Below are positions 10,899 through 31,060 of a stretch of 41,346 nucleotides of DNA, in pieces. A program made the translations under genes and the position numbers. This stretch comes from a virus. The notes below the pieces were generated by a model. That model had not been told where the DNA came from and made no database searches. It was given only the letters and a program-made list of their open reading frames with translations. Numbering within the stretch: position 1 is the stretch's first letter; each line of letters starts with the position of its first letter. The stretch lies in the UHGV virus genome UHGV-0007810. One strand, given 5' to 3'.

Positions 10899-11229
10899 AT
10901 CAGCAGCAGAGCGCAAAGCCGCTCAGAGAGCCAGACAAGCTGCATCTGGTGTGCGTAAGCTGGAGATTGTGCTTGATGCTCAGGAAATTGAAATGCTTGA
11001 GCGTAACTGTGCCGCGCGTCGCCCCGGGCGTGCGCCTTACGAATTTGGTGAGTATATAGCGTTACTGATCCGCCAGGATGATGTACGCGTGCGCGGGCGT
11101 ATAAAATCGATCAGCAGAAAACGTTGCGGTAAGTGCGGCGAGAGAGTTCCAGTTAATTCATGCCCGTGCAATGGTGACTCGCAATGTTGGGTGACCAAAG
11201 GCTGGCATGAAACGAAATTAATAGTGTGA
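10891..11229 (+). CDS. Hypothetical basic protein with Cys-rich C-terminus
   Basis: 112 aa; AGGAAA Shine-Dalgarno; C-x2-C ... C-x-C cluster; its stop codon lies inside the 12-bp palindrome at 11226. Confidence 0.5.
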   Translation: MAKSAAERKAAQRARQAASGVRKLEIVLDAQEIEMLERNCAARRPGRAPYEFGEYIALLIRQDDVRVRGRIKSISRKRCGKCGERVPVNSCPCNGDSQCWVTKGWHETKLIV

Positions 11230-11237
11230 CATGTCAC
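11226..11237. repeat. Perfect 12-bp palindrome GTGACATGTCAC (copy 1 of 3)
   Basis: Exact; 41 bp upstream of a terminator hairpin. Confidence 0.8.
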
Positions 11238-11278
11238 GAGTAGATTATGCATGATGAATTTGATGTGTTTTGAATACT

Positions 11279-11305
11279 GCCGCCAACTATGGCGGCTTTA
11301 TTTTG
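11279..11305 (+). terminator. Rho-independent terminator before the packaging operon
   Basis: GCCGCC-AACTAT-GGCGGC followed by TTTATTTTG. Confidence 0.6.
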
Positions 11306-11315
11306 CATGGTACTA

Positions 11316-11330
11316 TTACCACAACGGTAA
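11316..11330. promoter_or_regulatory. Operator-like palindrome TTACCACAACGGTAA
   Basis: Exact; 20 nt upstream of the small terminase start, within an 11-bp direct repeat ACTATTACCAC x2. Confidence 0.55.
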
Positions 11331-11350
11331 CTATTACCACGGTGGTTACG

Positions 11351-11944
11351 ATGCCTGCTGAACCTAAAACCTATAAACGTAAATCAACGCAATTTAAGCC
11401 ACTAACAGCAATGCAGGAGGCTTATTGCCAGTCATACATCAAAACGCCTGAAAACCAGACTCAGGCAGCGATTAACGCAGGATTCTCCCCAAATACAGCG
11501 GCAGTTAAAGCCAGTGTCATGATGCGCGATGAACGCATTCAAAAACGGATTGCCGAGCTGATGGAAGAGCGCAACAAACGAATGCGTGTCAGTGCTGATT
11601 ACGTTCTCATGCGCCTGGTGGAGATCGACCAGATGGACGTGATTGATATCCTCAACGATGATGGGGGCCTTAAGCCAATCCGCGAGTGGCCGAAAATCTG
11701 GCGCACTACGCTTAGCGGCTTTGATCTGTCATCGACCATCATGAACATGAACGAGGATTCGATAGAGACAATCCTCAAAAAAATTAAATGGCCTGACAAG
11801 GTGAAGAACCTTGAGCTGATTGGTAAGCACGTCGATGTCAATGCATTCAAAGAACGCCTGGATGTTAATGTGAATGTGACAATTGCTGATCGCATAGCGG
11901 CAGCCAGGAAGAGACTGAAAGAACGTCAGGATGGCAATCAGTGA
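11351..11944 (+). CDS. Terminase small subunit
   Basis: About 197 aa from ATG 11351 (the ORF-track extension covers a terminator and operator); HTH-containing N-terminus (TAMQEAYCQSYIKTPENQTQAAINAGFS) typical of small terminases; precedes the large subunit. Confidence 0.7.
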   Translation: MPAEPKTYKRKSTQFKPLTAMQEAYCQSYIKTPENQTQAAINAGFSPNTAAVKASVMMRDERIQKRIAELMEERNKRMRVSADYVLMRLVEIDQMDVIDILNDDGGLKPIREWPKIWRTTLSGFDLSSTIMNMNEDSIETILKKIKWPDKVKNLELIGKHVDVNAFKERLDVNVNVTIADRIAAARKRLKERQDGNQ

Positions 11945-13416
11945 CAGATGCAGCGTTATCTCCTGAAGAGCAGTTGATCGAGGATATTGCAGGGTTCACT
12001 CACGATCCGCTTGGCTATGCCCTCTATGCGTTCCCGTGGGGGGAAGATGGGACTGAACTGGCACATGCCACCGGTCCACGTCAGTGGCAGGCTGATGCGT
12101 TCCGAGAGATACGTGATCACCTGCAGAATCCAGAGACTCGCTATCAGCCGCTTATGCTGGCACGTGCTTCGGGTCACGGTATTGGTAAATCCGCATTCAT
12201 CTCAATGCTGATCAACTGGGGCATGTCCACTTGCGAGGATTGTAAGGTTGTGGTGACCGCCAACACCGACAACCAGCTTCGAACGAAGACCTGGCCGGAA
12301 ATTATCAAGTGGTCGAACCTTGCTATCACGAAAGACTGGTTTACCTGTACCGCTACCGCGATGTACAGCAATGATCCTGGACACGACAAGCGGTGGCGAG
12401 CTGACGCAATCCCCTGGTCTGAGCACAACACTGAGGCATTCGCCGGACTACACAACGAGCGCAAACGCATCATTGTGGTATTCGATGAAGCGTCGAACAT
12501 TGCGGATCTGGTGTGGGAAGTTGCCGAGGGTGCGCTAACGGACGAAGACACTGAGATTATCTGGGTGGCGTTCGGAAACCCTACACGTAATACCGGGCGT
12601 TTTCGCGAATGTTTCCGCAAATACAAACACCGCTGGAAAACTGCGCAGATTGACAGCCGGACGGTGGAAGGTACTAACAAACAGCAGTTGCAGAAATGGG
12701 TTGATGACTACGGGGAAGACAGCGACTTCGTTAAAATCCGTGTGCGCGGCATATTTCCTGATGCATCTGAATTGCAGTTTATCCCTACCGGCCTTACTGA
12801 CGAGGCAATGAAACGGGTGGTAACCGCTGCGCAGGTTGCACATGCTCCGGTGATAATCGGCGTTGACCCGGCATACTCCGGCGTTGATGACGCTGTGATA
12901 TACCTGCGGCAGGGGCTGCACAGTAAGGTGCTGTGGACTGGCAACAAGACCACTGACGATCTGATTATGGCGAAGCGTATCGCTGACTTTGAAGACCAGT
13001 ACCAGGCTGACGCAGTGTTCATCGACTTCGGTTACGGAACTGGTCTGAAGTCAATCGGTGATGGCTGGGGTCGTACATGGCAACTTGTTCCGTTCGGTGG
13101 CGCGTCTACTGACCCGCAGATGCTCAACAAGCGTGGGGAGATGTTCAACTCATGCAAGACATGGCTGAGGCTGGGCGGCATGCTGGATGACCAGGAAACA
13201 GCGGACGACCTGTCTGCGGCAGAGTACAAAGTTCGAGTGGACGGTAAAATCGTTATCGAACCGAAGGAAGATATCAAGGAGCGGCTTGGGCGTTCTCCTG
13301 GTAAAGGCGATGCGCTACTGCTGACGTTTGCGTTCCCTGTGTCGAAGCGTCTGCGAATTCTAGGTCAGCAGAACCAGCAAGGAAAGGCCATTACAGATTA
13401 CGATCCCTATGCTTAA
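11941..13416 (+). CDS. Terminase large subunit
   Basis: 491 aa; P-loop ARASGHGIGKS, Walker B-like VVFDEAS, C-terminal nuclease-like region; GTG start overlapping the small-subunit stop. Confidence 0.85.
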   Translation: MTDAALSPEEQLIEDIAGFTHDPLGYALYAFPWGEDGTELAHATGPRQWQADAFREIRDHLQNPETRYQPLMLARASGHGIGKSAFISMLINWGMSTCEDCKVVVTANTDNQLRTKTWPEIIKWSNLAITKDWFTCTATAMYSNDPGHDKRWRADAIPWSEHNTEAFAGLHNERKRIIVVFDEASNIADLVWEVAEGALTDEDTEIIWVAFGNPTRNTGRFRECFRKYKHRWKTAQIDSRTVEGTNKQQLQKWVDDYGEDSDFVKIRVRGIFPDASELQFIPTGLTDEAMKRVVTAAQVAHAPVIIGVDPAYSGVDDAVIYLRQGLHSKVLWTGNKTTDDLIMAKRIADFEDQYQADAVFIDFGYGTGLKSIGDGWGRTWQLVPFGGASTDPQMLNKRGEMFNSCKTWLRLGGMLDDQETADDLSAAEYKVRVDGKIVIEPKEDIKERLGRSPGKGDALLLTFAFPVSKRLRILGQQNQQGKAITDYDPYA

Positions 13417-13466
13417 TCCGCTGGTGGGGATAATGTCGTTGATATCCTCTGGTGAGGATAAAACAA

Positions 13467-13486
13467 AGCCAGCTCATAGGCTGGCT
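13467..13486. terminator. Bidirectional terminator-like hairpin after the large terminase
   Basis: AGCCAGC-TCATAG-GCTGGCT with an A-run upstream and T-rich downstream. Confidence 0.5.
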
Positions 13487-13490: not shown

Positions 13491-13502
13491 GTGACATGTC
13501 AC
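13491..13502. repeat. Perfect 12-bp palindrome GTGACATGTCAC (copy 2 of 3)
   Basis: Exact; directly abuts the hairpin at 13467-13486. Confidence 0.8.
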
Positions 13503-13506
13503 GGTG

Positions 13507-13878
13507 TTATTGCTCGCTTAACTTCTGCTTCAGCAAGTAACCTTCAAGCATCCAGATTTTGTTTACAGCATTCTGCCGGGCAATCTTCCGACCAATTTCT
13601 GCATCAAAGTTTTCCGGGCTTGCACAGGCGCTCTCTCCGGTGACGGTGAAGCCGTTGCGCAGCACCAGGACGCAGAACGTCAGCAGAGAAAGTGATTCGT
13701 GCGGCTGGTAGTTTACATATCCGCCAGTATGTTTCGCTTTTATGGCTTTGCCAAAGGCACCATCCTCTGCTGTGAAATATGCCTCCTGAGCAATAATGCT
13801 TTCGATATGGTCTGGCGTAACGCGCGGAGCAGTTTTGCCTTTCTCAACGATTTCTTTTTCGATTTGCTGGTCGTTCAT
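13507..13878 (-). CDS. Hypothetical phage protein (possibly Sf6 gp66 / N4 gp49-like family)
   Basis: 123 aa; AAGGTGA Shine-Dalgarno; central GFTVTGESACASPENFDAEIGRKIA resembles that family as recalled. Confidence 0.55.
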   Translation of the reverse strand: MNDQQIEKEIVEKGKTAPRVTPDHIESIIAQEAYFTAEDGAFGKAIKAKHTGGYVNYQPHESLSLLTFCVLVLRNGFTVTGESACASPENFDAEIGRKIARQNAVNKIWMLEGYLLKQKLSEQ

Positions 13879-14076: not shown

Positions 14077-14153
14077 TGGCGTGGCATGCAGGATTCGAAC
14101 CTGCGACCAACCGCTTAGAAGGCGGTTGCTCTGTCCAACTGAGCTAATGCCAC
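14077..14153 (-). tRNA. tRNA-Arg (anticodon UCU)
   Basis: Reverse complement folds as a cloverleaf: acceptor GTGGCAT/ATGCCAC, D-stem GCTC/GAGC, anticodon stem ACCGC/GCGGT with loop CTTCTAA (anticodon TCT), T-arm GCAGG-TTCGAAT-CCTGC, discriminator G and CCA. Confidence 0.9.
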
Positions 14154-14475: not shown

Positions 14476-14490
14476 TTACCTGAAAGGTAA
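14476..14490. promoter_or_regulatory. Operator-like palindrome TTACCTGAAAGGTAA
   Basis: Exact; about 90 nt upstream of the small ORF that precedes the portal gene. Confidence 0.55.
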
Positions 14491-14580
14491 TAATTCGCGC
14501 GTTAAATGTCAACTGTCTACGATAAATAAATCATATGTGGTTAAATTGGTAATAATTTAATTGCGTACGGAGTCATTGAT

Positions 14581-14787
14581 ATGTGCATGGGTAGCTCACC
14601 ATCAGTGCCTGCAACACCAGAAGTTCAGGCAGCACCACAGGAGCAGGATGCCGCCGTTGTTGATGCCCGCGACGAAGAAACTCGTCGCCGTCGCGCTGCT
14701 GCTGGTCGTAGTTCTACGCTGCTTACCGGTTCTCAGGGCGACACATCAACTGCTAATACCAGCGGTAAAACGCTACTTGGTCAGTAA
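14581..14787 (+). CDS. Hypothetical small protein (68 aa), low complexity
   Basis: Shares the initiation context CGGAGTCATTGA-(A/T)-ATG with the portal gene 220 bp downstream; coding status uncertain. Confidence 0.35.
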   Translation: MCMGSSPSVPATPEVQAAPQEQDAAVVDARDEETRRRRAAAGRSSTLLTGSQGDTSTANTSGKTLLGQ

Positions 14788-14801
14788 CCGGAGTCATTGA
14801 A

Positions 14802-16481
14802 ATGGCGGAAACAACTAAAGAGCGATTGAACAAACAGTTCGCACAACTTGAAAGCGAGCGTCAGTCGTTCGAGCCGCACTGGCGCGAGTTGAGTGATTAC
14901 ATCAACCCGCGTGGTTCCCGCTTTCTGACTTCTGAGGTCAACCGTAACGATCGACGCAATACACGCATTATTGATTCGACCGGGACTATGGCGGCGCGCA
15001 CTCTCGCCAGCGGCATGATGTCAGGCATCACAAGCCCCGCGCGTCCGTGGTTTCGCCTGGCTACGCCAGATCCTGAAATGATGGATTATGGCCCTGTTAA
15101 GTTGTGGCTTGAGGCGGTGCAGAACCGCATGAACGATATGTTCAATAAGTCGAATCTCTATCAGTCGCTGCCGCAGTTATACGGAAGCCTCGGCACATAC
15201 AGCACTGGTGCAATGGCAGTGCTGGAGGATGACGAGGACATCATTCGCACAATGCCATTCCCGATAGGCAGTTACTACCTGGCTAACTCACCTCGTGGCA
15301 GTGTGGACACCTGTTTTCGCAAGTTCTCTATGACTGTTCGTCAGCTTGTTCAGGAGTTCGGGCTAAATAACGTCAGCGAATCCGTAAAAAGCATGTGGGA
15401 AAGCGGCACCTACGAGAAGTGGATTGAAGTGATGCATTCGGTTTACCCGAACATTGACCGCGATACATCGAAGCTGGATAGCAAGAACAAGCCATTCAAA
15501 TCGGTTTATTACGAGGTTGGTGGCGATAACGACAAGTTGTTGCGTGAGTCCGGATTCGATGAGTTTCCAATTATGGCCCCGCGCTGGGAAGTTAACGGCG
15601 AAGATGTTTATGGATCATCATGCCCGGGTATGCTGGCGCTTGGACCTGTTAAGGCATTGCAGCTTCTCCAGAAGCGCAAGTCGCAGTTGATTGATAAAGC
15701 CACCAATCCGCCGATGGTTGCTCCGACTTCCCTCAAGAATCAGCGTGCCTCCCTTCTTCCTGGCGACATCACGTATATCGATCAGATTACTGGTCAGGAT
15801 GGTTTCAGGCCTGCTTATCTGGTTAACCCCAGTACAGCAGATTTGGTGGCAGACATTCAGGACACTCGTCAAATCATTAACAGCGCCTACTTTGTCGATC
15901 TGTTCATGATGTTGCAGAACATCAATACCCGCTCGATGCCTGTGGAAGCGGTGATCGAAATGAAAGAAGAAAAACTTCTGATGTTGGGGCCGGTTCTGGA
16001 GCGCCTGAACGACGAATGTCTTAATCCTCTCATTGATCGCTCTTTCTCGATGATGGTGCGTAAAAACATGCTGCCGCCACCGCCTGACGCGATGGAAGGC
16101 ATGCCCCTGAAGGTCGAATACATTTCCGTCATGGCTCAGGCGCAGAAGTCTATCGGCCTGTCCAGTCTGGCGTCCACGGTTAACTTCATTGGTCAACTTG
16201 CGCAAGCGAAACCAGAAGCTCTCGACAAACTCAACGTTGATCAGGCGATCGATGCATTCGCTGATATGTCCGGAGTGTCTCCAACCGTCATTGTTCCGCA
16301 GGAACAGGTTGAGCAGGCTCGCCAGCAACGGGCACAGCAACAACAGCAGCAACAAATGATGGCGATGGGGATGGCGGCGGCACAGGGTGCCAAGACGCTA
16401 AGTGAAGCTAAAACTTCGGATCCGAGTGTTTTGTCAGCTATGGCGAATGTAGTTAGTGGTCAGGGTGGGCAATCACAATGA
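14802..16481 (+). CDS. Portal protein (podovirus head-tail connector type)
   Basis: 559 aa; position after the terminases; Q/A/M-rich flexible C-terminus (QQQQQQQMMAMGMAAAQGA) like T7 gp8 as recalled. Confidence 0.8.
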   Translation: MAETTKERLNKQFAQLESERQSFEPHWRELSDYINPRGSRFLTSEVNRNDRRNTRIIDSTGTMAARTLASGMMSGITSPARPWFRLATPDPEMMDYGPVKLWLEAVQNRMNDMFNKSNLYQSLPQLYGSLGTYSTGAMAVLEDDEDIIRTMPFPIGSYYLANSPRGSVDTCFRKFSMTVRQLVQEFGLNNVSESVKSMWESGTYEKWIEVMHSVYPNIDRDTSKLDSKNKPFKSVYYEVGGDNDKLLRESGFDEFPIMAPRWEVNGEDVYGSSCPGMLALGPVKALQLLQKRKSQLIDKATNPPMVAPTSLKNQRASLLPGDITYIDQITGQDGFRPAYLVNPSTADLVADIQDTRQIINSAYFVDLFMMLQNINTRSMPVEAVIEMKEEKLLMLGPVLERLNDECLNPLIDRSFSMMVRKNMLPPPPDAMEGMPLKVEYISVMAQAQKSIGLSSLASTVNFIGQLAQAKPEALDKLNVDQAIDAFADMSGVSPTVIVPQEQVEQARQQRAQQQQQQQMMAMGMAAAQGAKTLSEAKTSDPSVLSAMANVVSGQGGQSQ

Positions 16482-16774
16482 CAGATTACGAAGACGATCA
16501 ACTGAAAGAAGAAAACGCCCGTAAGCAACGTGACATGGCGCAGCGTGAAATTGATGACATTCGCTTTGTCATGAGCAGTGAACAGGGGCGTCGCGTTGTC
16601 TGGTCGGTGCTGGAGAAAGGCCGTGTGTTTTCCGCTATCTCACCGATGGACGCTATGGCAATGGCATTTAATGAGGGGCAACGCAATCTGGCGCTGGAAC
16701 TGTTTCAGCGCGTTATGGCGCATTGCCCTGAACAGTATTTGAAGATGGCCAAAGAGGCCAGTGAACAGGAGTGA
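16478..16774 (+). CDS. Hypothetical head-associated protein
   Basis: 98 aa; ATGA overlap with the portal stop. Confidence 0.55.
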   Translation: MTDYEDDQLKEENARKQRDMAQREIDDIRFVMSSEQGRRVVWSVLEKGRVFSAISPMDAMAMAFNEGQRNLALELFQRVMAHCPEQYLKMAKEASEQE

Positions 16775-16776
16775 TC

Positions 16777-17472
16777 ATGAATTTATTTGAGCGTTTGCTG
16801 TATCGCCGTCTTTGCAATGAGCAACCAGTCGATGGTGGAGCAGCTCCGGCTGCGTCAGAACCGTCAGCGCCTACAGGTGATAACCCTGCTCCAGTTGGTG
16901 ATCCATCACAACAGGAAGGTGATAAGCCACAACCTGTTGCTGATGTCGATAAACCTGATGATGAAAAAAAATCTGAAAACGATAAGCAGGGTGAAAAAAA
17001 AGACGGCGATAAACCAGAGGGTGCGCCGGAGAAGTACGAATTTCAGGCTGCCGAAGGCGTAGAGCTGGATACAGAAGCGTTGAAGGAATTCGAGCCGGTG
17101 GCGCGAGAACTTAACCTGACCAACGAGCAAGCGCAAAAGCTGGTTGATGCTTATCCGAAGATTCTGGCAGGTGTTCAGCAGCGCCAGGCAGAAGCCTGGC
17201 AGAAAACAACCGAGCAGTGGGCTGCGGATGTAAAAGCTGACAAAGAAATCGGTGGCGACAAGTTGATTTCTAACCTTAGCGCCGCACAGCGTGCGCTTGA
17301 CCAGTTCGGGACACCTGAACTCAAAGAATATCTGAACACCACCGGGCTGGGTAATCACCCTGATCTGGTCAAAACGTTCGTGAAAATCGGAAAGGCGATG
17401 TCTGAAGATGGCATGGTCACCGGTGGTAATGAAGGCCAGCGTAGTGCGGCCGAAGTGCTCTATGGCAAATAA
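16777..17472 (+). CDS. Scaffolding protein (putative)
   Basis: About 231 aa, acidic and helical with a D/E/K-rich N-terminal third; between portal and major capsid; AGGAG Shine-Dalgarno. Confidence 0.55.
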   Translation: MNLFERLLYRRLCNEQPVDGGAAPAASEPSAPTGDNPAPVGDPSQQEGDKPQPVADVDKPDDEKKSENDKQGEKKDGDKPEGAPEKYEFQAAEGVELDTEALKEFEPVARELNLTNEQAQKLVDAYPKILAGVQQRQAEAWQKTTEQWAADVKADKEIGGDKLISNLSAAQRALDQFGTPELKEYLNTTGLGNHPDLVKTFVKIGKAMSEDGMVTGGNEGQRSAAEVLYGK

Positions 17473-17486
17473 GAGAGGAAATGACA

Positions 17487-18473
17487 ATGGCTGTTAAAGG
17501 CTTAACTGCGCTAACGCTGGCTGACTGGGGTAAGCGCGTCGATCCAAACGGGAAAGTCGATAAGATTATCGAGCTTCTCGGTCAAACTAACCCGATCCTT
17601 CAGGATATGCCTTTTGTCGAAGGGAACCTTCCTACCGGACACCGAACCACCATTCGTTCTGGTTTACCTTCAGCTACCTGGCGTTTGCTGAACTATGGCG
17701 TACAGCCAAGCAAATCAACCACAGTGCAGGTAACCGATTCCGTGGGCATGCTGGAAACCTATGCTGAAGTCGATAAGTCACTGGCTGATCTGAACGGCAA
17801 TACCGCCGAATTCCGCCTGTCTGAAGACCGCGCATTTATTGAAGCGATGAATCAGCAGATGGCGCAGACGCTGTTTTATGGTGATTCCAGCGTTAACCCT
17901 CAGCAGTTTATGGGACTGTCCTCCCGCTATTCCAGCCTGTCTGCGGGTAATGCTCAGAACATCATTGATGCTGGTGGCACGGGTACAGATAACACCTCAA
18001 TCTGGTTAGTGGTGTGGGGCGAAAACACCGTGCATGGCATCTTCCCGAAAGGACAGAAGGCTGGCATCCAGATGGAAGATAAAGGCCAGGTGACACTGGA
18101 AGATGCTAATGGCGGCAAGTACGAAGGCTATCGCACCCATTATAAATGGGATAACGGACTTGCTCTGCGTGACTGGCGTTATGTTGTTCGCATTGCAAAC
18201 ATCGATGTCAGCAATCTTTCAGAACCTTCCTCTGCCGCAAATATTGCGAAGTTGATGGTTAAAGCACTGCATCGCATTCCAAACCGTGGCATGGGCCGCC
18301 CGGTGTTCTACATGAACCGCACTGTAGGCCAGGCTCTTGATCTGCAATCTCTGGAGAAAACATCTCTGGCGATCAGCGTAAAAGAGACAGAAGGCGAGTG
18401 GTGGACTTCATTCCGTGGTGTACCAATCCGTGAAACTGATGCGCTTCTGGAAACAGAAGCCCGCGTGGTGTAA
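17487..18473 (+). CDS. Major capsid protein
   Basis: About 328 aa immediately after the scaffold; GAGAGGAA Shine-Dalgarno; followed by a hairpin and small head genes. Confidence 0.7.
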   Translation: MAVKGLTALTLADWGKRVDPNGKVDKIIELLGQTNPILQDMPFVEGNLPTGHRTTIRSGLPSATWRLLNYGVQPSKSTTVQVTDSVGMLETYAEVDKSLADLNGNTAEFRLSEDRAFIEAMNQQMAQTLFYGDSSVNPQQFMGLSSRYSSLSAGNAQNIIDAGGTGTDNTSIWLVVWGENTVHGIFPKGQKAGIQMEDKGQVTLEDANGGKYEGYRTHYKWDNGLALRDWRYVVRIANIDVSNLSEPSSAANIAKLMVKALHRIPNRGMGRPVFYMNRTVGQALDLQSLEKTSLAISVKETEGEWWTSFRGVPIRETDALLETEARVV

Positions 18474-18489
18474 CGCCTGTTATTAACCT

Positions 18490-18509
18490 GTGGGTCGTAA
18501 CAGACCCAC
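18490..18509 (+). other. Stem-loop between the capsid gene and the next gene (no T-run)
   Basis: GTGGGTC-GTAACA-GACCCAC; possible RNA stability or processing element. Confidence 0.3.
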
Positions 18510-18524
18510 TAATGGAGAAAGAAG

Positions 18525-18962
18525 ATGATCACCGACAAACTGTTGATGTTCTCCGAAGCTCAGGCGGTTACGAATACCGCGGCTTCTACTGACGTAATCG
18601 ATCTCGGTCCAATTGACGGAAAACGTCGTGATATCGGCGTGGGTTACCCGCTTGAGTTTTGGGCGCTGGTTAACACAGCCGCCGCGGCAAGCGGTGATGC
18701 AACTGTAAACATCCAGTTGCAGACGAGTGAGAATAACAGCTCATGGACCACTATTTATGATAGTGGCGCACTGGCAAAGACCGCCCTGACAGCAGGTAAA
18801 CGAGTTGTTTCTGCAAAGGTGCCTGCCGGTGTTCAGCGATATCTGCGTGTTAACTACTCCGTCGCAACTGGCCCACTAACGGCTGGCGAATTCACTGCTG
18901 GTATCAGTCTTGATGTTGATGCCAATACGCCGTATCCGATCCGCTCAAAAGTAACTGGTTAA
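18525..18962 (+). CDS. Head protein (possible capsid decoration protein)
   Basis: 145 aa, Ala/Thr/Gly-rich; position directly after the major capsid. Confidence 0.45.
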   Translation: MITDKLLMFSEAQAVTNTAASTDVIDLGPIDGKRRDIGVGYPLEFWALVNTAAAASGDATVNIQLQTSENNSSWTTIYDSGALAKTALTAGKRVVSAKVPAGVQRYLRVNYSVATGPLTAGEFTAGISLDVDANTPYPIRSKVTG

Positions 18963-18972
18963 GGTGATATCG

Positions 18973-19308: not shown

Positions 19309-19326
19309 GCCTCGCGAATCCGACAA

Positions 19327-19346
19327 GGGGCTTCGGCCCCTTTATT
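19327..19346 (+). terminator. Rho-independent terminator after the head gene block
   Basis: GGGGC-TTCG-GCCCC followed by TTTATT. Confidence 0.65.
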
Positions 19347-19358
19347 GCAGGAGTGTAT

Positions 19359-22758: not shown

Positions 22759-23222
22759 TGATCGACGTTCAAATTATTCCCGCTACAGAAGAGCATCTTC
22801 AGATGATTTTGCCGGATGTTCGTCAGGCTGATATTGACGAACTGTATGCGGTATCGCTGATGACTACCGAAGATGCGCTGCGTGTTGGTCTTCGCACTGC
22901 GACTATGGCCTGGTCAGGATTTGCGAACGGAGAACTGGTAACCATGTTTGGCGTATCTCCGGCGTCAATGATCGGTGGCAATGGTACGCCCTGGCTGGTA
23001 GGAACCAGCCGTATTGAAAAATATCAGAAGACATTTCTTCGCCACTGCCGCCCTGTATTGCAGCAGATGCTGGCAGTTTATCCGCGCCTGGAAAACTACG
23101 TCGACGAGCGAAATCATGTTGCCAAAGCATGGCTGCACTGGCTTGGATTCAGGCTTGAAGAAGCCGCGCCTTATGGTGCTCTTGGTCTTAATTTCCACAG
23201 ATTTCACATGGAGAGAAAATAA
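22758..23222 (+). CDS. Hypothetical virion protein
   Basis: 154 aa; overlapping start/stop with its neighbours. Confidence 0.5.
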   Translation: MIDVQIIPATEEHLQMILPDVRQADIDELYAVSLMTTEDALRVGLRTATMAWSGFANGELVTMFGVSPASMIGGNGTPWLVGTSRIEKYQKTFLRHCRPVLQQMLAVYPRLENYVDERNHVAKAWLHWLGFRLEEAAPYGALGLNFHRFHMERK

Positions 23223-23767
23223 TGTGCGATCCGGTTATTGCTGGTGGCGCAATGCTCGCCATGAGTGGCATTCAGGCATACACCCAGTACCAACAGGGAA
23301 AGTATGCCTCGAAGGTTGCAGAAGCGAACGCAGATATAGCCACTGCTCAGGCAAATGATGCAATAAACAGAGGTAACGCTGAAGCTGAGCAACGGCGCAG
23401 AGAGACCCGACAGCGGCTTGGTACACAGGCGGCGACAATGGGGGCTACCGGCGCTGATTTATCTACAGGTAACGCGCTGGATATATTTGACGACACTGCC
23501 CAGTTTGGCGCTCTTGATTCGCTGACGACGGTGAATAACGCGCAACGCGAGGCTTACGGTTATCAGGTTCAGGCTGCCAACTATAAAGCAGAAGCCAGTT
23601 CAGCCCGTAAACAGGGGAATGTGGGAGCAGCAACAACATTGCTCACTGCGCCTCTGAAGGCATACGGTGCGTACCAGATGTTTGGTGGGACGTGGAGTCC
23701 GTTTACTCAAAGCACTCCTGCGCCAATCGGGGCAGCAGCAGGAACCAGATTACCCGGAGGATTATAA
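23222..23767 (+). CDS. Internal virion / ejection protein (T7 gp14-like)
   Basis: 181 aa; N-terminus MCDPVIAGGAMLAMSGIQAY resembles the T7 gp14 N-terminus as recalled; Ala/Gln-rich. Confidence 0.55.
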   Translation: MCDPVIAGGAMLAMSGIQAYTQYQQGKYASKVAEANADIATAQANDAINRGNAEAEQRRRETRQRLGTQAATMGATGADLSTGNALDIFDDTAQFGALDSLTTVNNAQREAYGYQVQAANYKAEASSARKQGNVGAATTLLTAPLKAYGAYQMFGGTWSPFTQSTPAPIGAAAGTRLPGGL

Positions 23768-26280
23768 TGCCAGTCGTACCAACAGTATCCGGACGTCAGG
23801 TTGAGAGCCGTGGAGTTCAGTCAGCAGGCTTGCAGACGTTTTCTCAGCCAGGTATTGGTGATGCTTTTGTTCTGGCAGGGGCAGAGACTATTGATGTTTT
23901 TGGTCAGGCAAAACAGCGTGCCAATATCGCTCTGGCTCAGGAGGCATCTCTTAACCTCAGTCAGATAAGCAGCGATCTGCTGAATAACCCTGAAACAGGG
24001 TTGCTTAACCTGAAAGGGAAAAATGCTATTGGAAAAGGCCATGAGTATACGCAGCAGTTTGATGCTCAGGTCGAACAACTGGCTATGTCGCTGCCGGATG
24101 AACAGGCTCGTAATACTTTCATGCAGCAGGCGCAGCAGCAGCGCATTCAGTTCACTACGCAGGCCGGGCGGCACGAGATAGGGCAAATAAACGCCTACGA
24201 AGAAGGCCAGTTTCAGGCTACGCTGCTGAACAATGGTAAAAATGCCGCAGCATTGTATGGCGACAACGCCGCATACGTATTGGCTAATAAGCAAACTTTC
24301 CAGCAAATTGAGGATTACGGCATTGCGCATGGCTGGAGCGACGAGCAAATCCAGGCCAAGAAAGTCGAGTTTAAAGAGAAGGTTGCTGATGCCGCATTGT
24401 CCCAGTGGTCGGCAAACAATGCGACCGCATTCATCCAAAGTAATGGCGAGTTAAGTGATACTGCTGCTGGAGCTCGCCGTGCTGTAGCAGATAGTGACTC
24501 TTCCGAGCGTGCCCGTGGCATACGCAACAATAACCCAGGAAATCTCGAATACAGCAAAACTAATCCGTGGGTAGGCCAGACCGGTGATGATGGTCGATTT
24601 GCTAAATTCGAAACACCTGAACACGGGATTCGTGCATTAGGGCGAAACCTGATGTCGTATCAGAGGCAGGGTATTGATACCGTCAGCGAGATAATTAATC
24701 GCTGGGCACCGCCTACTGATAAAAATGACACTATGTCGTATATCAAAGCAGTGTGCGAACAACTTGGCGTTTCTGCTGATGAGCCTCTCGATGCATCTAA
24801 TCCTGATACCCTGAAGGCGCTTTGTGCAGCCATTATCCATCATGAGAACGGTAGCCAGCCATACAGTGATCAGCAGTTAACTGCTGGTGTCAGTGCAGCA
24901 CTTGGTTTATCAACAATTCCAACCAACACCAAACGCTATACCGGTAATGCAGCATTCGATGCGGCATCTCCTGAGGCGCAGGCAAGTTTTATGCGACAGG
25001 CGGATCAACTGCGTCGGCAGCAGCAGGCTGAATATAAAACGATGATTGACAGCCAGGTTCGCGATGCGACAGCTGCGTATATGCGTGGCGTTGAATTTCC
25101 TAACCCACCTGGTGAGGCTGATTTTATTGCAGCTTATGGAGTCAGAGAAGGAAACCTGCGATATACCGAGTTCAGAAATACGCAAATCGCCGGACAGTAT
25201 ATAGGCTCTTTCCGCAACATGCCGACAAGCAGCATTACAGCATATGTTGAGCAATTACGCCCGGATACTGGTGAGACAGGGGAGGGTTATGCGGCACGAG
25301 CCGCTCTTTATGACAACGTTGTGTCGGCTGCAAGTCAGGTGATAAAGCAGCGACAGGCTGATCCTGTACAGTTCTCTCTTGCCGCCGGACAGGCAAAGCC
25401 TATCGACATGAGCAATAAGGATAACTTTGGACAGAGCGTTGCCTTGCGTGCTGCTCAGGTCAGTGACCTTGCTAAGTCATATGGCACTCCACTGACGTTC
25501 TTTTCCAAAGACGAGGCCAATCAGATCGGTGTTTTCTTTCGTGATGCGCCCGTTTCCCAACAGGCAGCATATCTCGATACCATCAGGCAGAGCACTGGTG
25601 GTGGGCAGGTGTATATGTCAGCACTACAGCAGATCAGTGCCAACGCTCCATCTGCTGCCGTTGCCGGGATACTGATGGATAAGCCAGGTGGTATTTTGGC
25701 AGAAAAAAACTGGTTTAATCCGGATGTTTCCGTGTCTCCTGAAACCGCTGCGCAGACAATTCTTGCTGGCGCGGCGGCTCGTAAAGGTACTGATGACGCG
25801 AAAGGTATTCCGATGCCTAAAGATGCTGATCTCCGCCTTGAGTTTTCTGACATGGTGAAGGATGCATTTGCTGGTGATGCTCAGGGGGCATCAATGGCAT
25901 ACGAGATCGCAAAGGACTATTACGCAGGTGTGATGGCGAAAAAAGGCGTGGTATCAGGCGAAATTGACAATGATATCTGGAAACAGGCTGTTAACGTAGC
26001 TACAGGTGGCGTGCATGACTATAACGGAATGGGGAATGTTCTTTTGCCGTGGGGAATGTCTGCAGAGCAATTCGATAAGCAGGTTAATCAGGCTTGGAAT
26101 GAACAAGTTGTTGGCACAGGGATAAAAACACCGCCTGGTCAGTATGGTTTGCAAAGTTACGGCGATAGTCAGTACCTGGTGAAACTTGGTACTGGTTATC
26201 TGCTAAAAGATGATGGTTCTCCCGTTGTTCTTGATCTGACACAGAAGCGTCAGAGATTCTCCGGAGATATTCCGCAATGA
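23767..26280 (+). CDS. Internal virion / ejection protein with a conserved-looking central block
   Basis: About 837 aa from ATG 23767 (TAATG overlap; the ORF-track start 23692 overlaps the previous gene); central motif RGIRNNNPGNLEY...WVGQTGDDGRFAKF. Confidence 0.6.
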   Translation: MPVVPTVSGRQVESRGVQSAGLQTFSQPGIGDAFVLAGAETIDVFGQAKQRANIALAQEASLNLSQISSDLLNNPETGLLNLKGKNAIGKGHEYTQQFDAQVEQLAMSLPDEQARNTFMQQAQQQRIQFTTQAGRHEIGQINAYEEGQFQATLLNNGKNAAALYGDNAAYVLANKQTFQQIEDYGIAHGWSDEQIQAKKVEFKEKVADAALSQWSANNATAFIQSNGELSDTAAGARRAVADSDSSERARGIRNNNPGNLEYSKTNPWVGQTGDDGRFAKFETPEHGIRALGRNLMSYQRQGIDTVSEIINRWAPPTDKNDTMSYIKAVCEQLGVSADEPLDASNPDTLKALCAAIIHHENGSQPYSDQQLTAGVSAALGLSTIPTNTKRYTGNAAFDAASPEAQASFMRQADQLRRQQQAEYKTMIDSQVRDATAAYMRGVEFPNPPGEADFIAAYGVREGNLRYTEFRNTQIAGQYIGSFRNMPTSSITAYVEQLRPDTGETGEGYAARAALYDNVVSAASQVIKQRQADPVQFSLAAGQAKPIDMSNKDNFGQSVALRAAQVSDLAKSYGTPLTFFSKDEANQIGVFFRDAPVSQQAAYLDTIRQSTGGGQVYMSALQQISANAPSAAVAGILMDKPGGILAEKNWFNPDVSVSPETAAQTILAGAAARKGTDDAKGIPMPKDADLRLEFSDMVKDAFAGDAQGASMAYEIAKDYYAGVMAKKGVVSGEIDNDIWKQAVNVATGGVHDYNGMGNVLLPWGMSAEQFDKQVNQAWNEQVVGTGIKTPPGQYGLQSYGDSQYLVKLGTGYLLKDDGSPVVLDLTQKRQRFSGDIPQ

Positions 26281-28079
26281 GTTACTTTGGCCTTAATCCA
26301 GTAAACCAGAATCAGCAGCTTGACGAAGCAGCATCAAATCCAGCGGGCTTTAACAGCGATGTTGGTTTTTTCGACAATGCTGTAGGAGCGGCATTGTCTG
26401 GTTTGTACTCCGGGCTGGTGGCAAAGCCAGACCAGTTGCTATGGGCAGGAATGGATAAAATCGTATCCCCGATTGCTCAGTTTGTTAACGAAAACACCTC
26501 GTTCAATGATACTTCAGTTTCATACATTGCCGAGCAGAGAAAACTAGCAGAGCAGCAGGTTAAGCGGCTGACGCCTGATGCGGCGACAACCGGAACCGCC
26601 GGGCAGGTCCTTTATGGGTTGTTCGATATGGGCGGGCAGGCTGTTGTCGGTACAACGCTCGGTGGTCCGGTCGGAGGTGCTGCGGCGGTAACTTCGCTAC
26701 AGGGTTTTTCTGAGTTTGAACGGCTGACAGCACAGGGTGTTGATTTCAGGACGGCGCAGGAAGCGGGATTAGTGCAGGGTATTACTGCTGGTGCCGGAAC
26801 ACTGATCCCTATGAGCCTCGGGTTACGTGCTGGTGGTGCGCTGGCGGAAGGTGTGGCGGCTCAGCTTGCGCGGACGGGTGAAAGTTCAGTGCGACGCGCC
26901 GCAGCAACAGCAGTACGTGCAACGCCAGATATTGCCTATGCCGCAGGTACAAATATTGCGTTCGGTATGGCACAGCGTGGGCTTACTGCAAAAACGCTTC
27001 GTGATGGTGGCTATAGCGAAATGGCTAACCAGTATGATGTGTTGGATCGACAGGCAATTGCTATTGATGCTGTTCTTGGGGTGGCGTTTGGTGGTGTCGG
27101 CAGATTTATTAACTCTCGCGGCGAGTCTACAAACGCACCAAATTTTTCACCAGTTGATGTCGATGCTGCACTGGCGGCGAATGCCGCTCATCATGCTGAA
27201 ATTGATATTGCGCCCGGCGTGCCGATCAACGTGCTTTCGCGCAATTCTCACATTCAGGCTCTGCGAAAAGCTATGTCTGATGTTAGCCAGGGGAGACCTG
27301 TAGACGTTGCCAGCATTGTTGAGTCTGCATCTTTCAGTGAAATTCCTGGGCGCAAGAGTCTGCTGTCTCAGGCAGTTAATGAGGCTCTGTCATCTGTAGA
27401 TGATGGAGTAACGGCGCGCGCTATAGAAAATCGGTTGCTTGAAGAACAGGCCGCGCAGCTTTTGCCGCGTGGAGATAGACAGGTTTACCAGTCTGAAATC
27501 GCTAATAGCCAACGAATTATTGAAAATCTCACTAAACAGCGTGCACAAATTCTTGCAGAAGAGCCAACCGGTAGCGGTAAAGCTTTGTCTCGTGCTCGAT
27601 CAGATAAACAGGCCAGACTTCGCGATATTGACCAACGAATCCGGCAGGCACAAGAACGCCTGGAATTTTCCCGTAACGCGTTGGCACCGCATGAGCCTGG
27701 CGGTCAGTTTTTTGAAGCTCGAGCAGAACTGGCACGGAGACAGCAGGCTGAAAGTGAACTTAATGCTCAGGCTGTTTCATTCTATAAAACAGCAGAGGTC
27801 AGGACGCCAGACGAAGTAGCTCCTTTTGAGCCTGATAAAATATTGCAACAGGCAGAACAAAAAATGATGGCGGATCAGGCAGGAGATATTGATCTGCGCA
27901 TAGCTGAAGACTCGCTGCTTGAATCACCTGACATGATAATCACCGTGCTGGATGATGATGGTAATCCACAATCGCGCAGCGCGCGTGAAGTACTGGATGA
28001 AGCGAACAGGGAAAGTGAGCAGGCAATACAGGATTCCAGCCTGTTTGATGTCGCTGTGGCGTGTTTCTTGAGAGGTTAA
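26277..28079 (+). CDS. Internal virion / ejection protein
   Basis: 600 aa; ATGA overlap with the upstream gene; Ala/Gly-rich N-terminal half, coiled-coil C-terminal half. Confidence 0.55.
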   Translation: MSYFGLNPVNQNQQLDEAASNPAGFNSDVGFFDNAVGAALSGLYSGLVAKPDQLLWAGMDKIVSPIAQFVNENTSFNDTSVSYIAEQRKLAEQQVKRLTPDAATTGTAGQVLYGLFDMGGQAVVGTTLGGPVGGAAAVTSLQGFSEFERLTAQGVDFRTAQEAGLVQGITAGAGTLIPMSLGLRAGGALAEGVAAQLARTGESSVRRAAATAVRATPDIAYAAGTNIAFGMAQRGLTAKTLRDGGYSEMANQYDVLDRQAIAIDAVLGVAFGGVGRFINSRGESTNAPNFSPVDVDAALAANAAHHAEIDIAPGVPINVLSRNSHIQALRKAMSDVSQGRPVDVASIVESASFSEIPGRKSLLSQAVNEALSSVDDGVTARAIENRLLEEQAAQLLPRGDRQVYQSEIANSQRIIENLTKQRAQILAEEPTGSGKALSRARSDKQARLRDIDQRIRQAQERLEFSRNALAPHEPGGQFFEARAELARRQQAESELNAQAVSFYKTAEVRTPDEVAPFEPDKILQQAEQKMMADQAGDIDLRIAEDSLLESPDMIITVLDDDGNPQSRSAREVLDEANRESEQAIQDSSLFDVAVACFLRG

Positions 28080-28084
28080 ATTAA

Positions 28085-30559
28085 ATGAGACAGGAATGTA
28101 TACAAGCGGTCCAGCAGGCGGCGCAGCGCACGTTAACGGCGCGAGAAATACAGAACATTGAAGACCGCATTTATCGAAATATGCGCTCCATTGCTCGTGA
28201 TGACCCGATGTCGTGGCGACAACTTTCCGAATCAGAACGGTTGTATCGTGCAGCACAATTGGCATCTGAAGAATTACAGCGAGAAGCGGCATTAAAGAAA
28301 CGTCGTGTGGCTCTCACTATAGCCGCACGTCAGAGATTGGATAAATTTATCAATAGCTATCAAGGGGCTGATGGGAAACTTGGCGCTCTTAACCGTACTA
28401 TTGCTTTTAATGCAGACGGTAAATCGAATTTCCTCTCTGTTGAGTCCAGAACAAAAGCCACTCGTGATTATGCATTGAGTCAATTGCAGGAGGCATTCGA
28501 AGCAGTTGATCCTCGCTTTTTTGGCCTGTTTGAAGATGAAGCGGGCGTGCGTGACCTGGTATATGAAATGCGAGGGCAAAATACTGGCAATGCTAAAGCA
28601 AGAAAAGGTGCTAAGGCGTGGAGAGAAGTGACAGATCTACTCCGCCGCCGGTTTAATGATGCTGGTGGGGACATTGGCTATCTCGAAAACTGGGGGATCC
28701 CTCAACATCATTCTATGGAAAAGGTTGGGGCGGTATCAAAAGATAAATGGGTTAGCGATGTTATAGGTAAGCTGGATCGCAAATATTATACCCGAGCCGA
28801 TGGACAACTGATGAACGATGCCGAGTTGTCTGCATTTCTTGGAGAGGCTTATAACACGATCGCTACTGGTGGGCTGAATAAGCTTACTGATACCGGAATG
28901 CGAATTTCCGGCGCACGTGCTAACCGTGGTAATGCATCACGACAGATACATTTCAAAGATGCAGATTCCTATCTGCAATATCAGCAACTTTATGGCGATC
29001 GCTCTCTATGGGAAATCATGGTCGGTCACCTGGAAGGTATCAGTAAAGATATTGCTCTGGTGGAAACATATGGTCCAAACCCCGATCATGTTTTCCGCTC
29101 CCTTCTTGATCAGGTTAAGGCAGAAACGGCAACAGCTAACCCGAGTAAAACCGGTAGCGTCGAGCGTCTGGCGAACAAAACAGAGAACTTGTACAACTTT
29201 ATTTCCGGAAAAACACAGCCTGTAGCGAATCCCCACATCGCGCGATGGTCTGACAATATCCGCAACTGGCTGGTTGCCAGCAGACTCGGATCCGCGTTGC
29301 TGTCATCGTTCTCTGATCTTGGAACCATGTATCTGTCTGCGAAGGTTACCAACCTTCCAATGAACCAGTTATTTCGCAACCAGCTTGAAGCTATGGACCC
29401 AACGAACCGTACTGAGCTTGCGCGGGCGCGCCGCGCTGGCCTGGCGATGGAATCTCTACTTGGCAGCGTTAACCGCTGGGCGATGGATAATATGGGGCCG
29501 TCTGTGTCTCGTTGGGCGGCAACGGCGGTAATGCGTGCCAGTGGGCTTACAGCATGGTCAGATGCGCACAAGCGCGCCTATGGCGTAACCATGATGGGAA
29601 GCCTGGGAGAAGTAGTGTCACGGACACCAGACCTTCGTAGCCTCGATGACTCTGATTTTCGTATCCTGAAAAGTAAAGGGATTACTGACACAGACTGGAG
29701 CGTATGGAAGCTGGCGCAACAGGAGGACTGGGGGAACGGTAATAATACGATGCTGACACCGGAAAGCATTATGCGTATCCCTGATTCAGCAGTTAAACAT
29801 CTTGGTGAGCCTGAACGCGTGAAATTTGAGGCAATGCGTAAACTGCTCGGTGCCGTAACTGAAGAAGTTGATATGGCTGTTATTACACCGGGCGCACGTG
29901 AGCAGATGTTCGTAGGGTCTGGTCTTCAGCGTGGAACATGGAAAGGTGAATTAACGAGAAGTGTTTTCCTGTTTAAATCGTTCCCTATCTCGGTTGTTAT
30001 GCGTCACTGGTCACGCGCTATGGGTATGCCGTCTGCTGGTGGGCGTGCAGCATATATAGCAACGTTTTTAGCAAGCACAACCATGCTTGGTGCTCTTTCC
30101 ATGCAGATTACTGATCTTATTAATGGGAGAAATCCAAAGGAAATGACCGGTGACCACATGGTTAAATTCTGGATAAATGCATTTTTAAAAGGTGGCGGGG
30201 CTGGGTTGTACGGTGATTTTCTTTTCTCTGACCACACTAGGTACGGGAGCGGCGCGCTGGCGTCGATGCTTGGCCCGGTAGCTGGTCTGGTTGATGATGT
30301 AGTGAAGATTACTCAGGGCATACCGTTAAATGCTGTGGAAGGGAAGAGTGAGCAGACTGGTGGTGATCTGGTGAAGCTGGGGAAAGGTTTGATGCCTGGT
30401 GCGAATCTCTGGTACTTGAAGGCGGCTCTCGATCACATGATCTTTAACCAGATGCAGGAGTATTTTTCACCAGGTTATTTGCGTAAAATGGAGCAACGTT
30501 CGAAGAAAGAGTTTAACCAGACATACTGGTGGCGACCACAGGATGTCACTCCGCAATAA
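28085..30559 (+). CDS. Internal virion / ejection protein (T7 gp16-position)
   Basis: 824 aa; last and largest of the ejection-protein block; hydrophobic stretch near residues 640-680. Confidence 0.55.
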   Translation: MRQECIQAVQQAAQRTLTAREIQNIEDRIYRNMRSIARDDPMSWRQLSESERLYRAAQLASEELQREAALKKRRVALTIAARQRLDKFINSYQGADGKLGALNRTIAFNADGKSNFLSVESRTKATRDYALSQLQEAFEAVDPRFFGLFEDEAGVRDLVYEMRGQNTGNAKARKGAKAWREVTDLLRRRFNDAGGDIGYLENWGIPQHHSMEKVGAVSKDKWVSDVIGKLDRKYYTRADGQLMNDAELSAFLGEAYNTIATGGLNKLTDTGMRISGARANRGNASRQIHFKDADSYLQYQQLYGDRSLWEIMVGHLEGISKDIALVETYGPNPDHVFRSLLDQVKAETATANPSKTGSVERLANKTENLYNFISGKTQPVANPHIARWSDNIRNWLVASRLGSALLSSFSDLGTMYLSAKVTNLPMNQLFRNQLEAMDPTNRTELARARRAGLAMESLLGSVNRWAMDNMGPSVSRWAATAVMRASGLTAWSDAHKRAYGVTMMGSLGEVVSRTPDLRSLDDSDFRILKSKGITDTDWSVWKLAQQEDWGNGNNTMLTPESIMRIPDSAVKHLGEPERVKFEAMRKLLGAVTEEVDMAVITPGAREQMFVGSGLQRGTWKGELTRSVFLFKSFPISVVMRHWSRAMGMPSAGGRAAYIATFLASTTMLGALSMQITDLINGRNPKEMTGDHMVKFWINAFLKGGGAGLYGDFLFSDHTRYGSGALASMLGPVAGLVDDVVKITQGIPLNAVEGKSEQTGGDLVKLGKGLMPGANLWYLKAALDHMIFNQMQEYFSPGYLRKMEQRSKKEFNQTYWWRPQDVTPQ

Positions 30560-30568
30560 GGAAGTGTT

Positions 30569-30742
30569 GTGTTTTTAATTATTTTGAGTGTGATAATTTC
30601 TGGTGGATTGTTATTTATTGACCGCTACAAATATTTTCTTAACCCTCAGACTCAAGCTATTTGCTGGTTCATCTTTGTTGTGCAGGGAGTAGTTCTTGTT
30701 GCAAGCCTTATTGAGGGGAGGCCTCTTATTTTTACTGGGTAA
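30569..30742 (+). CDS. Small membrane protein (57 aa, two predicted TM helices)
   Basis: Not in the ORF track; hand-translated from GTG 30569 (AAGGAAG 5 nt upstream): MFLIILSVIISGGLLFIDRY...AICWFIFVVQGVVLVASLI.... Confidence 0.35.
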   Translation: MFLIILSVIISGGLLFIDRYKYFLNPQTQAICWFIFVVQGVVLVASLIEGRPLIFTG

Positions 30743-30755
30743 ATTAGGTGACTAC

Positions 30756-31052
30756 ATGCAAGCTATAGGATTCATTGTTTATATCGTCGTTGGTCTTTTT
30801 CAGTTGGCAGCAATTATGGCTGGGCTTGAATCATGGTGGGGATTGCACTGGATAATTGCAGCCCCCATTGCTTTCATCGTGAGCTATATTCCATTTGTTG
30901 GAGCGATTGTTGGTATGGTTGGCGCTGTGGATGTATGGCGGTGGGAGTGGTGGCAGGCTGGCCTTCTCTTCTTTGGTGGGATCATCTTTGCTATTGTCTG
31001 CGGTGGAATGTCATCATTTTTCGAACGGCTATCATTCAGAAAAGGAACGTGA
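30756..31052 (+). CDS. Membrane protein (about 98 aa, three predicted TM helices)
   Basis: ATG 30756 with AGGTGA upstream; hydrophobic throughout; stop codon lies inside the 12-bp palindrome at 31049. Confidence 0.5.
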   Translation: MQAIGFIVYIVVGLFQLAAIMAGLESWWGLHWIIAAPIAFIVSYIPFVGAIVGMVGAVDVWRWEWWQAGLLFFGGIIFAIVCGGMSSFFERLSFRKGT

Positions 31053-31060
31053 CATGTCAC
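31049..31060. repeat. Perfect 12-bp palindrome GTGACATGTCAC (copy 3 of 3)
   Basis: Exact; directly abuts the terminator hairpin at 31061-31085. Confidence 0.8.

Follow-up and report, generated by a model that had tools for sequence, protein, structure and literature searches.

A palindromic site linked to the gene of a small Cys4 protein in the Uetakevirus genome UHGV-0007810 and in unrelated temperate phages

Three copies of a palindrome at gene ends

The virus genome UHGV-0007810 (hereafter designated the window, that is, the whole stretch of 41,346 nt analyzed) is that of a temperate podophage of the epsilon15/phiV10 group (genus Uetakevirus), and contains exactly three copies of the perfect 12-bp palindrome GTGACATGTCAC, at 11226–11237 (copy A), 13491–13502 (copy B), and 31049–31060 (copy C). 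We found that the site is real and non-random, is conserved at the nucleotide level, and is genetically linked to a protein family, whose member in the window is encoded by the gene that ends in copy A. Copy A, which is part of a 14-bp unit (11225–11238, tGTGACATGTCACg), overlaps the TGA codon (11227–11229) of this open reading frame (ORF) at 10891–11229 on the plus strand. Copy B is located 4 nt past the stop codon (13507–13509) of a minus-strand gene of the N4 gp49/Sf6 gp66 family (13507–13878), and is sandwiched between that stop codon and the terminator following terL. Copy C overlaps the TGA codon (31050–31052) of the plus-strand ORF 30696–31052, with which the virion operon ends, and is directly followed by a bidirectional terminator that separates it from a convergent antirepressor operon. 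The intrinsic terminators are at 11279–11296 (terminator A; plus strand, 41 nt after copy A, at the end of the early-right operon and before terS), at 13467–13486 (terminator B; minus strand, 4 nt from copy B, with a good T-run on the minus strand but a weaker one on the plus strand), and at 31061–31078 (terminator C; plus strand, abutting copy C). When each copy is viewed in the orientation of the gene closest to it, the layout at the end of the transcription unit is the same in every case, namely, stop codon, palindrome, and intrinsic terminator. A preliminary description of this DNA had reported the three exact copies, the upstream stop codons contained in the first and third of them, and the terminators beside all three, and we confirmed these observations in every detail.

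The same description had regarded three copies in 41 kb as far beyond chance. Indeed, in dinucleotide-preserving shuffles of the window (n = 200), GTGAC-NN-GTCAC occurred only 0.035 times per shuffle on average (maximum, 2), versus three observed, and these shuffles, together with the motif counts in 779 kb of prophage DNA described below, rule out a chance origin. A scan of the window allowing up to two mismatches gave a single further match, at 16530. The window holds nine perfect 12-bp palindromes, three of which are GTGACATGTCAC, and the only other 12-mer family with at least three copies is the iteron array at 6890–7031.

The layout would also suit an element acting in the RNA; after transcription, the palindrome would be part of the 3′ untranslated region and, as a hairpin or a protein site, could influence termination, processing, or stability. 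In the window, each of the three transcribed copies is soon followed by a terminator hairpin, and a palindromic RNA is the same from either strand. When folded alone, however, the palindrome forms a 4-bp hairpin of only −1.2 kcal/mol, which is no better than those of shuffled sequences, and the Rfam search gave no match to the palindromes. Furthermore, the half-sites are invariant rather than covarying, the center varies freely over about 96 contexts, and the copies in other phages are found inside coding regions and upstream of promoters. An RNA-level element is thus highly improbable, and the RNA processing site that had been among the earlier suggestions finds no support. We also rejected the palindrome as a part of the intrinsic terminators, its hairpin being too weak and the actual terminator hairpins being separate and adjacent.

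Conservation among close relatives

The window shares 92–98% identity over long stretches with phiV10, TL-2011b, ZX5, and related phages. A search of related genomes for the palindrome at equivalent positions, as had been suggested earlier, revealed GTGACATGTCAC at all three positions in the Salmonella phages epsilon15 and SPN1S, and at two positions each in phiV10 and TL-2011b. Thus, the position of copy A is kept in epsilon15, SPN1S, and TL-2011b, copy B is present in epsilon15, SPN1S, and phiV10, and copy C is kept in all four phages, with differing left flanks. The third copy of phiV10, corresponding to copy A, is a one-base variant, GTGACATGTTAC, which was also found in two further relatives (L074 and L076); the phiV10 record (NC_007804.2, positions 1 and 39104) is linearized inside this copy, ending with ...GTGTGA and starting with CATGTTAC. 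Among these phages, the terminator stems and gene ends beside the palindrome diverge, whereas the 12-mer is constant. Extending the comparison to 80 close relatives, copy A was found in about 75 and copy B in about 52; copy B is lacking or point-mutated in about 25, its loss being due either to a different module after terL or to point mutation.

The site is also independent of the exact end of the gene. In three IMG/VR contigs (L104, L094, and L119), copy A is kept although the stop codon is located 7 nt upstream, and in IMG/VR contigs it is kept before various sequences, including a terminator, a LexA-box promoter with a umuD-like gene, and the ribosome site of the next gene. The invariance of the 12-mer between diverging flanks and the retention of its place when the stop codon moves bear out the earlier view that it does not reflect ordinary coding constraint. 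In some relatives, the LexA-box promoter (TACTGT-N8-ACAGTA) and umuD-like gene are inserted immediately to the right of copy A, between the regulator-like gene and terS (L088, 6283–6350; L089, 1250–1320; L207 and L208, about 5350–5420). In SPN1S (L005), the lysis operon ends with an Rz-like spanin gene whose stop codon is overlapped by a one-mismatch copy, GTGACATGTCAT, at 26722–26733; nothing corresponding to this copy is present in the window.

Linkage to the gene of a 112-residue protein

The gene ending in copy A (10891–11229, plus strand) encodes a 112-residue protein of the epsilon15 gp49/phiV10 gp55/N15 gp46 family. The protein matched PHROG 536 (E = 5e-54), which carries the label 'transcriptional regulator'; Pfam and the PDB yielded no match, and NCBIfam none above threshold. 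It has four invariant Cys residues (Cys79, Cys82, Cys91, and Cys99; hence designated the Cys4 protein), a basic N-terminus, and a conserved C-terminus. Residues 22–62 matched a ribbon-helix-helix register weakly (NCBIfam PRK11675, E = 0.045); the hhalign comparison with CopG was also weak (E = 0.006, probability 6%), with MatP aligning in the same register. A ribbon-helix-helix fold is thus weakly suggested by these profile comparisons and unproven, and the hhalign comparison with MatP itself revealed no significant similarity (probability <1%). The family comprises 210 clusters at 50% identity among 1.8 billion representatives, and its members nearly always stand alone; the few long members look like gene-call artefacts, and domain fusions were therefore discarded as a hint to function. 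No conserved neighbor gene of the homologues was found, the neighbors including terS, an integrase module, NinB, and others.

The association between site and gene was analyzed in 80 prophage loci from different species, which were picked by protein homology alone (47–85% identity; 779 kb in total) and came from Xenorhabdus, Providencia, Pantoea, Pectobacterium, Serratia, Klebsiella, and other host genera. GTGAC-NN-GTCAC was present within 60 nt of the stop codon of the homologue in 52 of these loci, at offsets of −3 (32 cases), +3, +5 (10 cases), +7, +12, +24, and other values, and three loci contained tandem pairs of sites 27–33 bp apart. In the whole 779 kb, the motif occurred 80 times versus 0.74 expected, while none of 60 permuted half-sites exceeded six occurrences and none of the other spacer lengths exceeded five. 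Coding constraint cannot explain the site, because the offsets vary and some loci have tandem pairs; moreover, the site stays when the stop codon moves by 5–25 nt, and it is fixed at synonymous positions in cII-like genes. In the latter, found in lambdoid prophages, an embedded copy is read as the codons xGT-GAC-ATG-TCA-Cxx (residues R/C-D-M-S-H/R/Q), and the motif is kept at synonymous positions while the neighboring codons vary synonymously (Xenorhabdus, Providencia, Pectobacterium, and Rouxiella). These cII-like loci had not been selected for the motif (L243, L255, L259, L260, L262, L265, L267, L272, and L283, in addition to the copy at 7622 of ZF40).

The linkage extends to unrelated temperate phages. 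Homologues down to about 30% identity were found in N15/phiKO2, Pectobacterium phage ZF40, P2-like phages, and Vibrio phages, and GTGAC-NN-GTCAC was almost always located at or just after their stop codons; complete genomes encoding a homologue usually contained three copies, versus 0.04 expected. Thus, N15 (35% identity) has sites at 28550, at 33237 inside repA, and at 39269 at the stop codon of gene 46, and phiKO2 (35% identity) has three sites in places as in N15, including one at the stop codon of the homologue. The sites of ZF40 (L288) are at 5125, at 7622 inside a cII-like gene, and at 14944, at the stop codon of the homologue (3 nt after gp22), and those of Vibrio phage K233 (31% identity) at 21342, 33227, and 35942, the last being 31 nt before terS. 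A P2-like Yersinia phage has one perfect copy and an imperfect neighbor. Even with very distant homologues, recognizable only by profile (E of about 1e-10 to 1e-14; L292–L296 and L320), the motif is still on the stop codon. A scan with the N15-type 14-mer returned mostly unrelated environmental contigs, and where the stretch contained a homologue, the site was at the end of the homologue. The positions of the sites outside the protein's own gene are constant within a lineage and differ between lineages. These results support the kind of protein-binding signal postulated in the preliminary description, since the palindrome travels with one protein gene across unrelated phages. The proposed tie to terminators held in the Uetakevirus lineage, where all three copies precede an intrinsic terminator, but not in the other phages (N15/phiKO2, ZF40, lambdoid prophages, and P2-like phages), where the copies lie inside genes or precede a promoter and have no terminator in their vicinity; the isrK/C4 antirepressor operon of N15, for example, starts about 66 nt downstream of the center of one site.

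Arrangements of the motif of a different kind were also observed. In P2-like prophages, a pair of sites is located at the far edge of a variable cargo region beside the portal gene, and the protein gene at the near edge. The pair belongs to a conserved stretch of about 130 bp, which contains an imperfect GTGACATGGCAC, 21 nt, and a perfect GTGACATGTCAC (L301, 5835–5879; L289, 11675–11719; similar in L304, L307, and L313). In a G+C-rich viral contig (L394, 10585–10703), six GTGAC-NN-GTCAC motifs were found within 120 bp inside a replication-initiator-like ORF; this array represents an iteron-like use of GTGAC/GTCAC half-sites, and the stretch examined showed no homologue of the small protein.

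As for the shape of the site, the flanks prefer a pyrimidine on the left and a purine on the right, as is always the case for the window copies, giving a 14-bp dyad, Y-GTGAC-NN-GTCAC-R. Over about 96 distinct contexts, the half-sites were invariant with no covariation, while the central two bases varied, being mostly AT but also CT, AC, GT, TG, and CG, with non-symmetric centers included. Dyad symmetry with conserved half-sites and co-occurrence of the site with one protein gene across lineages are both as in a regulator and its operator. Because the half-sites are invariant, the center is free, and the site occurs on either strand, inside and outside genes, and in tandem pairs, it appears to be the site of a symmetric dimer rather than an RNA structure. 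The 112-residue protein is the obvious candidate binder, because the linkage to this one small gene is tight and ancient and holds at varying offsets.

The half-sites resemble those of known host proteins. The site of Escherichia coli MatP, matS (13 bp, GTGAC-RNY-GTCAC; about 23 dispersed sites), which organizes the Ter macrodomain, has identical half-sites GTGAC/GTCAC, and both systems have perfect dyads in few dispersed copies per replicon; MatP reads DNA by a ribbon-helix-helix, a register that the phage protein matches weakly. The 12-bp site of SlmA, GTGAGTACTCAC, is likewise a perfect palindrome of the same length with the outer bases GTGA...TCAC. It is therefore conceivable that MatP, SlmA, or another host regulator of their kind binds the palindromes and ties the phage DNA to the nucleoid or the cell cycle, the phage gene being merely adjacent; indeed, the hosts of the phages that encode the protein are Enterobacterales, Vibrio, and Aeromonas, the group in which MatP and SlmA are found. 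However, the spacer of the phage site is always 2 bp instead of the 3 bp of matS, and sites with a spacer of 3 were absent from both the window and the 779 kb of related prophage DNA. The sites are on the phage and not at a chromosome terminus, and the phage protein has a Cys4 C-terminus, whereas MatP has a helix bundle and a coiled coil. The center of the phage site (positions 5–8) is CATG, in contrast to GTAC in the SlmA site, the symmetric positions 5 and 8 being swapped; SlmA is a host TetR-family protein, and nothing ties it to the phage gene. The palindromes were thus rejected as matS or SlmA sites, the resemblance being real but the spacer and center not fitting, and the involvement of a host factor, which would not explain why the site is so closely tied to a single phage gene at offsets that vary, is decidedly unlikely. 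A plasmid-type centromere for ParB/SopB was also rejected. The SopB sites of N15/phiKO2 are similarly palindromes scattered in a temperate phage, even in the same genomes as the homologue; in phiKO2, however, the partition sites are annotated with the sequence GTGCGACCACGGTCGCAC, which is another motif and is found in other places, and the window phage integrates and has no partition genes, either near its sites or elsewhere.

The position of copy A, about 35 nt before the annotated start of terS, could instead point to packaging, with the palindromes as recognition or accessory sites of terminase in a pac or cos region, as the preliminary description had also considered. The copy of Vibrio phage K233 located 31 nt before terS, and the occurrence of terS as the next gene in several prophages, would fit this idea, as would the pair in P2-like prophages, about 140 nt from the end of the portal gene, which we take to be the area where P2 has cos; a P2-type cos sequence was looked for near this pair and was not found. 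In the window, however, the three copies extend over 20 kb, and two of them are 2 and 20 kb from terS. The known cohesive ends of N15 are at the ends of its record, far from its copies at 28.5, 33.2, and 39.3 kb, the copies of ZF40 are 9–19 kb from its terminase, and the gene beside the site often belongs to an integrase module or is that of NinB, and is not terS. A packaging role is therefore very unlikely.

Possible action at the ends of transcription units

Presumably, the three palindromes are cognate double-stranded DNA sites of a symmetric dimer of the Cys4 protein, acting as an operator or roadblock at operon ends, a reading that we favor tentatively, at somewhat below an even chance. 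The binding of the 112-residue protein to the site, its dimeric mode on DNA, and the effect of binding are all inferred from the sequence comparisons. In this scheme, the protein would be made from the early-right (nin-like) operon after induction, and would then occupy the 3′ end of its own gene and one or two further sites. Each site is flanked by a stop codon on one side and an intrinsic terminator on the other, two of the three separating convergent units, and the bound protein might reinforce the unit ends by limiting read-through and antisense transcription. The early, terminase, and virion operons and the reverse-oriented accessory islands would thereby be kept from reading into one another. 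Terminator A would end the early-right operon, terminator B part terS–terL from the convergent island, and terminator C part the virion operon from the isrK–C4–antirepressor operon. For such an insulating effect at the unit ends, our confidence is moderate.

Several points weigh against this reading. The linkage of the site to the gene is not a proof that the gene product binds it. Copy B is dispensable, because it is absent or mutated in about a third of the close relatives, including TL-2011b, and 12 of the 80 prophage loci have no site within 10 kb. A position upstream of a terminator is odd for a roadblock. Finally, the role as an operon-end insulator may not be general, because the positions of the sites outside the own gene differ between lineages.

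Among known systems, a phage regulator with few dispersed operators is the closest kind. The operators of the epsilon15/SPC32H Rep (ATTACC-N5-GGTAAT) and those of P1 C1 are also short palindromes at several operon boundaries with a phage-encoded reader; they differ from the present site in motif, in that there are only about three copies of the latter, and in that one of these is at the 3′ end of the presumed regulator gene and not at promoters. It is unusual that the protein family is uncharacterized, that the site is at the 3′ end of its own gene, and that unit ends rather than promoters are marked. The palindrome was rejected as the Uetakevirus Rep operator itself, because the sequences differ and Rep-type sites are found elsewhere in the window. 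There, the epsilon15-type repressor operator TTACC-N5-GGTAA occurs in 17 copies with at most one mismatch (0.77 expected), spanning 136–37722, for example, at 5158, 5220, 5932, 8263, 8325, 11316, 11334, 14476, 32099, 33151, 33244, and 34363. Those at 11316 and 11334 are just past terminator A, that at 14476 precedes the portal operon, those at 33151 and 33244 are at the antirepressor promoter, and that at 34363 precedes the tailspike gene; nearly every transcription unit, including that of terS, is fronted by such copies. Because the Rep-type operators are spread before them, the late genes appear to be separate repressor-controlled units, and under that reading terminators A, B, and C would be true unit ends.

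These operators also bear on the opposite possibility of antitermination, in which the same protein, loaded at the palindrome as lambda Q or as RfaH at ops, would let the polymerase pass the terminator, so that transcription running on from the early operon would express the late genes. The order of regulator gene, site, terminator 41 nt on, and terS corresponds to that of Q, PR′, tR′, and the late genes in lambda; no recognizable Q is present in Uetakeviruses, copies A and C precede the terminator on the late-gene strand, and a promoter-like sequence, GTGACA-18-CATGAT, overlaps copy A in the window. This promoter-like match is not conserved in the relatives, however, and copy B, besides being dispensable, comes after the terL terminator on the late-gene strand. 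The late units appear to have their own repressor-controlled promoters with the operators at 11316, 14476, and 34363. The 112-residue protein has no Q-family match in Pfam or PHROG, and extra copies of the site are far from late promoters; moreover, in N15 and ZF40 a separate Q-like gene is present in addition to that of the protein, and the sites lack adjacent terminators. Antitermination is therefore rather unlikely.

A further alternative is that the palindromes punctuate the exchange of cargo modules, as sites of breakage or annealing that the small protein targets or protects. Homology breakpoints between the window and its relatives are located exactly at the palindrome edges (11239/11253, 13502–13512, and 31048), and the gene 10891–11229 and its site form a discrete 350-bp cassette, with 79 breakpoints at 10875–10899. 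Different cargo is found to the right of copy A (a terminator, the LexA-controlled umuD-like gene, and others), different genes are found to the left of copy C, and in P2-like prophages the protein gene and the pair of palindromes bracket variable cargo by the portal gene. On the other hand, many ordinary gene boundaries of the nin-like region are equally strong breakpoints, a length of 12–14 bp is too short for homologous exchange, nuclease or recombinase features were not found in the 112-residue protein, and the sites inside conserved genes (cII-like and repA) are not cargo junctions. We give a role as a recombination site only a small chance.

Returning to the Cys4 protein as the reader of the site, it is possible, if doubtful, that the pairing represents a widespread punctuation system of temperate γ-proteobacterial phages, composed of a Cys4 protein of about 110 residues and about three 14-bp sites that mark the edges of operons and cargo. 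The gene of the protein would always have one of the sites at its end, and the mechanism would be new among phage regulators. Candidates would be a MatP-like bridging of distant sites, folding the replicating genome into insulated domains, or the exchange of cargo modules, and cross-talk might occur with the host matS/SlmA systems, whose sites look alike. An architectural (site-bridging) or cargo-exchange role is conceivable in view of the N15 sites, the P2-like pair, and the breakpoints at the palindrome edges.

A full-text literature search gave no phage-related paper containing the 12-mer or the variant found in N15, the Uetakevirus papers do not mention the palindrome, and the GenBank record of epsilon15, in which many predicted binding sites are annotated, has none at the palindrome positions. 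The new content is the partner protein, whose gene the preliminary description had not noticed as the likely partner, and the conservation across lineages, and the finding extends well beyond the window. Collectively, GTGAC-NN-GTCAC and the small zinc-cysteine protein constitute an undescribed and widely conserved pairing, in which the sites are probably bound by that protein. If so, a function would be assigned to a family now annotated as 'hypothetical' or with the unspecific 'transcriptional regulator', whose range includes Uetakeviruses used for the detection of O157 and Salmonella, N15-like phage-plasmids common in Klebsiella, P2-like phages, and Vibrio phages. The pairing would also explain a conserved sequence at boundaries that carry antirepressor, SOS-controlled, and defence-type cargo. 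Being small (a 112-residue protein and a 14-bp site), the system is a potential orthogonal DNA-binding part, and the near identity of its half-sites to those of the host matS raises the question of an interplay with chromosome-organizing proteins.

The gene order of the window is as in phiV10. The integrase and then the early-left genes come before the repressor gene (5292–5876, minus strand), which is followed by the early-right operon of replication and nin-like genes and by terS and terL (11270–13416). A small reverse-oriented island between terL and the virion operon contains the Sf6 gp66-like gene and a tRNA-Arg gene (anticodon tct; 14077–14153, minus strand). The virion operon (14561–31052) is followed by the reverse-oriented antirepressor island, and then by the tailspike and lysis genes. 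The antirepressor operon, convergent with the virion operon, contains a Bro-N antirepressor gene (32186–32881) and holds copy C at its 3′ end; upstream of the Bro-N gene, isrK and the C4 antisense RNA were detected with Rfam (32929–33114, minus strand), as in the anti-immunity operons of the P1/N15 type. Inside the replication initiator gene (6628–7443), CCCAAAAACGGGA occurs four times at 6890–7031, three of the copies at a spacing of 24 bp, and this repeat probably represents the origin iterons.

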